Shown here: positions 31,059 through 32,607 of the stretch, piece after piece
How positions within the stretch are numbered: position 1 is the first letter of the stretch
Layout: each line of letters begins with the position of its first letter
Origin: Candidatus Poribacteria bacterium
GTDB lineage: Bacteria > Poribacteria > WGA-4E > PCPOR2b
Direction of reading: 5' to 3'
DNA: 64,000 nucleotides
NCBI GenBank assembly: GCA_965218095.1
Contig: OZ244587.1
Coordinates: forward strand, 1,568,001-1,632,000
Notes under the pieces: generated by a model
Database searches by the model: none
The model's input: only the letters and a program-made list of their open reading frames with translations
Told to the model about the DNA's origin: nothing
Made by a program: the position numbers and the translations under genes

Positions 31059-31556
31059 ATGATAATGGATTTAACCACAATCGGAAGAAAGCAATACACG
31101 CCGAGTGGCACAAATATATTCACTCAGGAAAATATACAAAGATTGAGTGGAGATATTATGTGTATCTAACAAAAACTTGACCATGCGGTTGCAAGTGATG
31201 ATAGAACCAAGATGAAATGGTATAACGCCAGAGCATATTGGGATAAACGTGAATACATCAACGCACGAAACAGTATCAACGGGAGTCCAATCCTGTCGAA
31301 ACTGTTTAGAATGCAGAAGGGGTGCTGTGAGTATTGTAGTCAATCCATAACCGATACACAAGTTAGGGAGACCACAATACACAAGCACCACTTAAAGCCA
31401 CGAAGTGAGGGCGGTGACTGGAAATCAGGCAACCTACGATTACTACACACCGAATGCCACCGAACACTTCACAGCACGTATTCACGGAAAGAAATGGCAA
31501 GCCTCATCAGCAAAAGTATTGATTACCTTCGACTAATGAAGCCAGCCATGACATAA
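31059..31556 (+). pseudogene. Intron-encoded protein remnant: RVT_N-like start fused to the C-terminal HNH domain; RT core missing
   Basis: Single frame ...RLSGDIMCI*QKLDHAVASDDRTKMKWY|NARAYWDKR...QKGCCEYC...HKHHLKPRSEGG...NLRLLHTECH; no YADD. Confidence 0.8.
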
Positions 31557-31584
31557 TGCGATAAGTTACTTATTCCTCAAAATG

Positions 31585-31812
31585 CTAAACTTTGGGGATA
31601 CTCTCAACAATAAACGTAACATTTTCAACAAGAGATGCAAGAGTATCCTTAATAATCTGCAAATCTGCTTTGACAAAATCCATATCAGCCTTGAGGTTAT
31701 CTATAGAAGCTACAATTGGACGGCGACCAGCCTTCAACAATATAACTTCAGTCTCAAGCGCAGAAACTCGCTGTAGAATCTCTAAATCAGCAGGAACTGC
31801 ATGCTCAGGCAT
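31585..31812 (-). CDS. Small coiled-coil hypothetical protein (intron cargo)
   Basis: RBS GGAGGGAG before MPEHAV; heptad-like RVSALETEV...IDNLKADMDFVKADLQIIK; own promoter upstream. Confidence 0.65.
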   Translation of the reverse strand: MPEHAVPADLEILQRVSALETEVILLKAGRRPIVASIDNLKADMDFVKADLQIIKDTLASLVENVTFIVESIPKV

Positions 31813-31841
31813 AACTCCCTCCAAAAACTCTATAGGTATCT

Positions 31842-31881
31842 ATCTATGTATAACTGGTGTAATCTATGTATAACTGGTGTA
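31842..31881. repeat. Exact 20-bp tandem duplication in the cargo gene leader
   Basis: atctatgtataactggtgta x2. Confidence 0.9.
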
Positions 31882-31889
31882 ATTATGTT

Positions 31890-31918
31890 AGTATAACATA
31901 GCGACAATATGGAGTCAA
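31890..31918 (-). promoter_or_regulatory. Sigma70 promoter inside the intron, antisense to it
   Basis: TTGACT-17-TATACT with extended -10 TG. Confidence 0.7.
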
Positions 31919-31954
31919 GGGGGAGCTGCGCAAGACTGCGCAGAAAGTGCTATC

Positions 31955-32437
31955 CTAACGTTGAGAATCATAATGAATCTCTCTAAAACCCTCAATATGT
32001 GCGTCAAACTCCAAAGCAATATCAGCAAGCCGGGAGTGAACGCTGGACATGTTAGAGTCAGTTAGACTAGAACCGTAATACACTAACACTCCAAAATGTT
32101 CCAACAGGGGAGATAACCAAGAGGGTATATCCATCACAACCTTCGGGTGGTAGGCAACAACTATGGTGTAAACATAACCTAATAGAGAACCAGAAACAAG
32201 ATGGGATTCAAATATCCGTATATTTACAGTAAAAAGAGAATCCTGACTAACTAGAACAACTTCTGGTATCTTACGAAACTCTCTGCTTAGGTAACCTCTT
32301 AACGCACTAGGACTTAACGCCTCCGCTTGTATACTCAAAACCAATTTTACCCTCACATCTGGTAAAGGTTCTATAGAAGCTGAAGGGAAAGCACAGAACA
32401 GGGAGCAAGCCACTACAAAATACCGAACAGAAATCAC
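31955..32437 (-). CDS. Exported hypothetical protein (intron cargo)
   Basis: RBS GAGGAGGTG; signal-peptide-like MISVRYFVVACSLFCAFPSAS; 160 aa uninterrupted; AT-rich. Confidence 0.65.
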   Translation of the reverse strand: MISVRYFVVACSLFCAFPSASIEPLPDVRVKLVLSIQAEALSPSALRGYLSREFRKIPEVVLVSQDSLFTVNIRIFESHLVSGSLLGYVYTIVVAYHPKVVMDIPSWLSPLLEHFGVLVYYGSSLTDSNMSSVHSRLADIALEFDAHIEGFREIHYDSQR

Positions 32438-32607
32438 ACTCTCTCACCTCCTCTTAACAGTTTTTGATCATTGTATGACGACCAAAAATGGGTGAGGTTT
32501 AATCTTATCGCGGTCATCATTTATAACTCGGAAAGCCGGGTGCGGTGAAAGTCGCACGCCCGGTTTGGAAGGGGGGAAAATTCCGCAAGGAATCTACCTA
32601 TCCTTAC

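Follow-up and report, generated by a model that had tools for sequence, protein, structure and literature searches.

Two antisense ORFs in domain IV of a decayed Poribacteria group II intron, and a probable accessory-gene slot in its lineage

The 64,000-nucleotide stretch of Candidatus Poribacteria DNA analysed here (the window; positions 1,568,001–1,632,000 of contig OZ244587.1, assembly GCA_965218095.1) holds a group II intron with two open reading frames (ORFs) in domain IV, both on the strand opposite to the ribozyme. The host is a sponge symbiont with a single-contig genome of 6.35 Mb and a GC content of 0.50 (hereafter G000). An earlier note, made from the letters of this DNA, had placed an intron, the remnant of its intron-encoded protein (IEP) and two minus-strand ORFs at this locus, and all of these are present (Table 1). 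The locus was read there as a gene shuttle mobilised in trans; our data favor a different reading, in which the intron is probably a decayed member of a Poribacteria group II intron sub-lineage with a variable slot for antisense accessory genes at the 3' side of domain IV.

Table 1. Features of the intron locus, in window coordinates (position 1 is the first letter of the window).
Feature	Positions	Strand	Description
5' exon end	30524-30535	+	Shine-Dalgarno-like AAGGAG (30524-30529), then IBS1 AAGATT (30530-30535)
Whole group II intron	30536-32607	+	2072 nt; 5' GTGCG, RF00029, homology to sister introns
Domains I-III	30536-31040	+	69-79% identity to sister introns over ~470 nt
Degenerate IEP frame	31059-31556	+	~50-codon N-terminal stub fused to En (HNH) domain
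HNH endonuclease ORF	31212-31556	+	114 aa; Pfam PF01844, E 1.7e-9; HNH motif intact
Small coiled-coil ORF	31585-31824	-	79 aa from TTG, or 75 aa from ATG at 31812
Tandem repeat, 2 x 20 nt	31842-31881	-	leader of small ORF
Promoter-like TTGACT-17-TATACT	31918-31890	-	leader of small ORF
160-aa signal-peptide protein	31955-32437	-	GTG start, GGAGG 7 nt upstream
3' slot border motif	32495-32519	+	AGGTTTAATCT ... CATCATT, common to three other cargo-bearing introns
DV/DVI	32531-32607	+	RF00029, 66.9 bits (gathering score 40), full model 1-77
3' exon	32608-33648	+	Gfo/Idh/MocA oxidoreductase gene, ATG directly after intron

The intron begins with GTGCG, which fits GUGYG, and its domain V (DV) has the AGC triad and a GAAA tetraloop; domain VI (DVI) also matches. 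The ribozyme ends, exon-binding site 1 (EBS1) and DV/DVI look intact, as described earlier; the D1–D4 model RF02012 matched weakly (31.8 bits, under the cut-off of 34). EBS1 (AATCTT, 30876–30881) lies in a hairpin loop and is the exact complement of the intron-binding site IBS1, the last six exon bases, so the intron sits where its own guide sequence would place an insertion. At intron positions 281–342, 8 of 13 sister copies have a corresponding 6-mer that pairs perfectly with the exon of that copy and varies together with it. About a dozen other introns of the genome are homologous to the first ~470 nt and last ~95 nt of the intron, with 68–92% identity. One DV match and one 5' end, and no second ribozyme (twintron), were found between 30400 and 32700.

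The IEP has lost its reverse transcriptase (RT)/maturase core, as the earlier note had proposed. Compared with the full-length IEP genes of introns in two related genomes, G017 and G066, ~1245–1250 nt encoding RT and X are missing at a junction near 31224, and PF00078 (RT) was not found in the window intron. The stub (31059–31169) forms a single reading frame with the HNH ORF, broken only by a TAA at 31167–31169. The HNH ORF has no clear ribosome-binding site and is 62% identical to the HNH region in G017. Derivatives that lack RT and keep HNH recur (the window, G016, G013 and G017:5605984), with similar but not identical breakpoints. At least four others of the 17 HNH matches in 29 family genomes have open frames of at most 165 aa. 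A single RT deletion common to the window and G016 was considered and rejected: G016 has an in-frame 159-aa HNH-only version with breakpoints ~5 codons off those of the window on each side, and the window HNH is closer to that of G066 than to that of G016. Either selection for the endonuclease or a deletion hotspot would account for this recurring retention of HNH.

Between the HNH end and DV, homology to cargo-less introns ends near 31548 and resumes near 32512, and the intervening DNA has a GC content of 0.36–0.45, compared with 0.50 for the genome. Both minus-strand ORFs of this cargo are uninterrupted and preceded by strong ribosome-binding sites, in line with the earlier description; in the small ORF, the ATG has a strong Shine-Dalgarno (SD) sequence (GGAGGGAG) directly upstream. 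The small ORF had also been credited with a promoter of its own. A promoter-like TTGACT-17-TATACT does precede it, but such sites are not enriched in the region (3, versus 2.5 +/- 1.6 in shuffles). No family was found for the small ORF in Pfam, PADLOC or PHROGs (E <= 0.01 for the latter two), and a word-based homologue search with it matched only itself. It is weakly similar to a 91-aa ORF in the G066 intron (E 2e-4, composition correction off); a profile of these two coiled-coil ORFs, tried as a family, returned only weak, coiled-coil-like noise. An RNA-library contig that is ~5% diverged covers the end of HNH and all of the small ORF, with each of its four indels in a 28-nt spacer outside the ORF. 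That the 75–79-aa coiled-coil ORF is a real gene is less certain than for its 160-aa neighbor. One public contig holds a single copy of the 20-nt leader repeat instead of two.

The 160-aa ORF is a real gene and a divergent member of a Poribacteria-wide family. A word-based search with it matched only itself, while a six-frame search of the phylum found its closest relative in G017, which belongs to another genus (E 3.7e-10, 31% identity, residues 8–147), and weaker ones elsewhere. The family consists of signal-peptide proteins of 160–230 aa with conserved Y..RELR...DV and C-terminal FD...LE..R motifs, and the window protein keeps the invariant residues R52, E53, R55 and R152. Its profile matches 55 of the 176 phylum genomes, many of them more than once, and G000 has three further places with a match. 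The 160-aa product would be a Sec-type exported protein, as the earlier note had predicted. In the family tree, the window and G017 proteins and four database proteins make up one clade that excludes the chromosomal paralogues (support 92/83), and a profile of that clade is strong only in G017 (1e-65) and G000 (3e-60) among the 176 genomes (next 1e-21). No Pfam family covers the exported-protein family (27 aligned members), LptE/PelC-like families included; nor did the 160-aa ORF match PADLOC or PHROGs at E <= 0.01. An HMMER scan of 1.84 billion representatives returned five weak relatives (P0003–P0007), and an ESM Atlas search returned unnamed clusters only.

The AlphaFold model of the 160-aa protein (27-sequence alignment, pLDDT 88.9) predicts an alpha/beta fold that resembles those of LptE, PelC and TolB-N. 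Fold comparison gave Z scores of 10.5–9.1 to CsgG, CT253, TolB-N, TraT, LptE and PelC, with 97–115 residues aligned at an rmsd of 2.5–4.6, and Foldseek, which the earlier note had suggested for the cargo, gave E about 1e-4 and TM 0.40–0.48. The predicted fold and the signal peptide are features shared with the LptE/PelC/TolB-N/CsgG/TraT envelope proteins. The window protein is 7–13% identical to these envelope proteins in sequence and has no Pfam match, and most members of its family have no clear lipobox; the likeness is at the level of the fold, and a fold predicted to be shared with such proteins gives no function. Our best guess is that the cargo encodes an envelope or periplasm protein under diversifying pressure. 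As a separate observation, G003 has 37 nt resembling DV (84% identity; L027/L033 1183–1218) that Rfam did not call, immediately downstream of one of its chromosomal paralogues of this family and on the strand of that paralogue.

Insertion of foreign DNA into these introns is common. Four sister introns carry transposase genes (IS3-type rve/HTH_Tnp_1, DDE_Tnp_1, and IS4/5 DUF4096), all antisense, and one insertion sequence (IS) has struck two introns at different points. The cargo could therefore be an unrelated secondary insertion into a dead intron, and its borders bear on this: an 8-bp perfect inverted repeat (31558–31565 / 32504–32511), the sole border feature, brackets the insert. Against such an origin, the insert has no Pfam transposase match, no target-site duplication and no repeat family, so that the search for transposon ends proposed earlier yielded only this inverted repeat. 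The repeat itself was rejected as a transposon mark or a conserved domain IV stem; no counterpart was found at the G017 and G066 borders, and one of its bases is changed in a strain variant. These points, together with an RT-bearing intron of G017 (below) that agrees with the window intron in gene family, orientation, position and right-junction sequence, make an unrelated insertion quite improbable. The IS that struck two introns is ~0.95 kb long (DDE_Tnp_1, G000:C1:5863911-5864930) and has ~30 copies at 95–100% identity, inside or adjoining at least four introns or intron fragments. Its presence in two sister introns had been considered as copying of intron and cargo as a unit, which was rejected: the insertion points differ and the copies number ~30, pointing to independent hits. 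A copy of this IS also immediately adjoins a 160-aa-family paralogue that is broken (2538933–2539442).

Misassembly at the insert, the other concern raised by the earlier note, is unlikely. Contigs from other public runs cover 31635–32519 without differences, one public contig bridges the left junction (31502–31822), and another bridges both junctions of a variant form.

The strongest evidence that the cargo is not confined to this dead copy comes from G017, whose intron carries the closest homologue of the 160-aa protein. There, the order is IEP, an antisense 74-aa ORF next to the HNH stop, the antisense 171-aa homologue, and DV (RF00029, 50 bits), such that the homologue has the same slot, the same orientation and a homologous right junction as in the window. 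The RT and X ORF of the G017 IEP is present, but the frame changes ahead of HNH. The host sites differ, being a Gfo/Idh/MocA gene in the window and an AAA-ATPase-like ORF in G017. Among the best 30 loci of the family (62 weaker hits lay outside this check), only the window and G017 genes lie beside a DV. The G017 cargo DNA is absent from 27 other genomes of its family, and searches for the junction pattern found only G017's own contig among genome contigs and, with a looser pattern, nothing among metagenome contigs.

Relatives with other cargo, which the earlier note had proposed looking for alongside relatives with the same cargo, were also found. Across the 29 family genomes, the distance from HNH end to DV exceeds 400 nt for 9 of 17 HNH matches (one of the nine being unreliable, from a partial HNH match) and is at most 116 nt in the other 8. 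The G066 intron has an uninterrupted 582-aa IEP and a slot with two antisense ORFs, one of 73 aa with two hydrophobic segments and the 91-aa coiled-coil ORF. In G016, the slot ORF is antisense, 144 aa long and hydrophobic at its N-terminus, and G024 has an antisense slot ORF of 75 aa; no convincing slot ORF was seen in four other long-gap introns. None of the slot ORFs of the related introns gave anything above cut-offs in Pfam, PADLOC or PHROGs scans. A border motif, AGGTTTAAYYT...CATCATT, lies just before DV in the window, G017, G066 and G016, that is in four of the seven introns compared, and is absent from the G024, G001 and I_598k introns. The slots of G016 and G017 have unrelated content even though the introns themselves share 79% identity over 1010 nt.

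Sequence comparison thus supports a genuine cargo on the antisense strand that is part of the intron lineage, not a chance arrival in a dead copy, and we consider a variable accessory-gene slot the probable explanation. The slot would lie between the IEP stop and the AGGTTTAAYYT...CATCATT motif before DV and would hold small genes for exported or membrane proteins, always antisense. In the window, the larger gene would have been drawn from a family that is otherwise chromosomal in the phylum. The module may have entered an ancestral RT-bearing intron and moved to new sites by reverse splicing, with slot content swapped by recombination between intron copies. Antisense orientation would allow expression from the genes' own signals and keep ribosomes off the ribozyme RNA. 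The window copy would later have lost RT and X and is now probably immobile.

Two further observations concern the related introns rather than the slot itself. An antisense ORF of 65 aa, with a CxxC and a coiled coil, precedes the IEP in G017 (L030, 2157–2516) and G016 (L084, reverse strand, 1871–2068), and in degraded form in G066 (L083, 1490–1630). It is 77% identical between G016 and G017, is adjoined by a perfect sense-strand TTGACA-17-TATAAT, and in G017 is bracketed by a 12-bp inverted repeat; its dN/dS between G016 and G017 (0.47) comes from only 9 synonymous and 18 non-synonymous changes and is too weak to use. In addition, the DVI of the G017 intron (L030, 5172–5475), and apparently that of G066 (L083, from ~4190), is interrupted by ~300 nt, which in G017 contain a 41-aa sense ORF with a strong SD.

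Public contigs show strain variation at the locus. The window insert was seen without differences, at low depth, in contigs of a public run in which a commoner form diverges after 31563. In another run, a contig of 1731 nt joins 30979–31563 to 32462–32559 through 1048 other letters in place of 31564–32461. This variant contig has 14 differences in 585 nt of stub and HNH, and its flanking genes are ~99% identical; the breakpoints are at 31563 and 32462, and divergence rises toward the slot. It follows that close strains differ by replacement or strong divergence of the coding part of the slot, with no such change in the intron and host genes. One run contains both the window form and the replaced-slot form. 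Copying of the cargo by retrohoming would produce the distribution described above, but exchange between intron copies through recombination accounts for it equally, and for this there is some direct evidence.

These exchanges also bear on a reading in which the genes move as DNA, by self-mobile or recombination-driven cassettes and not by retrohoming, with resident introns serving only as landing pads. Such a mechanism is consistent with the strain-level replacement, with the unrelated slot content of closely related introns, and with the backbones of the two carriers of the 160-aa family, which are not each other's nearest relatives. We regard it as unlikely: no recombinase, attachment-site-like repeats, cassette ends, integrase or attC-like sites were identified at the insert, and the border motif is part of the intron sequence and is found in introns that carry different genes. 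Moreover, this reading overlaps with the variable-slot explanation, which already includes recombinational exchange. A bolder form of the slot explanation, that the intron lineage acts as a cassette platform whose domain IV captures antisense envelope genes, retrohomes them and lets strains swap them by recombination in the flanks, is possible though doubtful. If it were true, the slot would be a hypervariable locus for surface and periplasmic functions in sponge symbionts.

Whether the intron still moves is a separate question. The earlier note regarded the RT-less intron as a non-autonomous retroelement mobilised in trans that acts as a gene shuttle; if this holds today, an RT supplied in trans would allow splicing and copying of the intron and so carry both genes to new sites. 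Part of that view stands: the cargo does belong to an intron lineage, and related cargo occurs at another host site in another genus. The exact match of EBS1 to the flanking exon is also compatible with it. Furthermore, G000 has 23 DV matches and many ~750-nt ORF-less intron copies but one intron RT gene, which indicates that RT-less copies spread in the past, and such past mobilisation was likely in trans. According to passages of PMC4424553, ORF-less introns and introns with degenerate IEPs are almost always accompanied by related introns, and the IEP of these may act on them in trans. Present activity is nonetheless unlikely. The cargo DNA matches only itself genome-wide and is absent from all 40 relatives searched. 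Two of the three PF00078 matches in G000 come from the one intron gene, which has an in-frame TGA, and no intact related RT/maturase was found elsewhere in this 93.9% complete genome. All four cargo-bearing introns are single-copy, in contrast to the multi-copy cargo-less ones. This single-copy state fits the lower mobility of engineered introns with larger domain IV inserts that is described in the abstract of PMC8524655, where introns with extra sequence insert less efficiently. The third PF00078 match (G000:C1:1095165-1095566, E 4.9e-13) lies in a 526-aa open frame, is non-intron-type by eye, and may be a defence-type RT.

Several observations weigh against the variable-slot explanation. 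The cargos of the window and of the three others searched are single-copy in their own genomes, with no retro-copying seen, and only two introns are known to carry the 160-aa family among its best 30 loci. The HNH region of the window intron has 71% nucleotide identity to that of G017 and 75% to that of a cargo-less intron of its own genome; since it is no closer to the former, a single cargo-bearing intron clade is not shown. The small ORF of the window does not resemble that of G017, and its weak likeness to that of G066 could reflect coiled-coil bias. No promoter was found for the 160-aa ORF, nor is there a terminator, and the branch of the window protein is the longest in the tree (2.37), compatible with relaxed constraint. 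A-rich sense strands also yield long antisense ORFs by chance. Finally, RNA-library contigs over the cargo (31665–31815 and 31993–32222) have a depth of 1–5, are unstranded and are no deeper than the flanks; they leave 32223–32530 and most of the host genes uncovered and are only a hint of expression.

At the extreme, these points could mean that the ORFs are non-functional, the 160-aa one now and the 75–79-aa one always, and are intact by chance in young, A-rich DNA. A positive AT skew on the plus strand (0.1–0.35) favors antisense ORFs, and the small ORF is without homologues. The neighboring genes are broken, as expected from the earlier characterization of the region as full of pseudogenes: the downstream oxidoreductase gene has an in-frame TAG at codon 18 (32659–32661), and the one upstream of the intron is split over two frames. 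Yet the 160-aa protein keeps its invariant residues and folds confidently in the model, both ORFs have strong ribosome-binding sites, and the indels of the ~5%-diverged contig all spare the small ORF. We regard this reading as very improbable.

The variable-slot explanation can be set beside several known systems. To our knowledge, group II introns are usually described as carrying only their own protein gene, with cargo only in engineered targetrons. ORF-less or non-autonomous group II introns do occur, as in Thermosynechococcus. Like introns that are ORF-less or have a degenerate IEP, the window intron has canonical DV/DVI, an EBS1–IBS1 pairing, a lost RT and many related copies in the genome; unlike ORF-less introns, it keeps HNH, the sole related RT is broken, and domain IV holds two unrelated antisense genes. 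As in targetrons, foreign genes sit in domain IV, but targetron cargo is man-made, whereas that of the window occurs naturally, lies antisense, is conserved across genera and varies between strains. Introns interrupted by IS, twintrons and LAGLIDADG-encoding introns also contain extra coding DNA; in contrast to these, the insert has no transposase, second ribozyme or homing endonuclease and instead encodes an exported protein and a coiled coil. By analogy only, the fixed slot, conserved border, varying small genes and exchange between strains recall integron-like cassette platforms, from which the locus differs in having a ribozyme as platform and no integrase or attC-like sites found. Non-IEP passenger genes are not among the intron variant forms in passages of PMC4424553, and no report of natural ones in bacterial group II introns was found in open-access texts, supplements excluded, including the available parts of that paper and of PMC8919778.

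If the variable-slot explanation is correct, bacteria would have a new route by which genes are carried and diversified, through natural introns whose conserved slot accepts unrelated genes with independent expression, and the slot contents would be a natural guide to the cargo size and orientation that domain IV tolerates. The idea is testable at the bench because the G066 intron combines an uninterrupted IEP with cargo. Furthermore, the analysis adds a small, unstudied, phylum-wide family of exported proteins as candidates for the envelope biology of Poribacteria symbionts.

The exon context of the intron recurs among its relatives. In the window, the SD-like AAGGAG is followed by six bases, the intron, and then the ATG of the Gfo/Idh/MocA gene. 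Of 13 intron copies of G000, 7 have an SD-like site 10–15 nt upstream together with a start codon located between -6 and +3 relative to the junction, and many introns of the family lie between an SD-like AAGGAG and a start codon or within the start codon, including those of G017 (L030, 1433–1452 and 5492–5498) and G066 (L083, 920–939). The ORFs that follow introns sited in this way are mostly short (17–74 codons). Introns of this family may target translation-initiation regions. No spliced exon–exon joint was among those listed for two RNA libraries of very low depth.

The split upstream Gfo/Idh/MocA gene and the intron together lie in a low-GC stretch (29000–32520, 0.40–0.49) flanked by DNA of 0.55–0.66 GC, and the window as a whole is a GC mosaic. 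Away from the intron, a tRNA gene lies at 15281–15353 of the window (RF00005, 60 bits).

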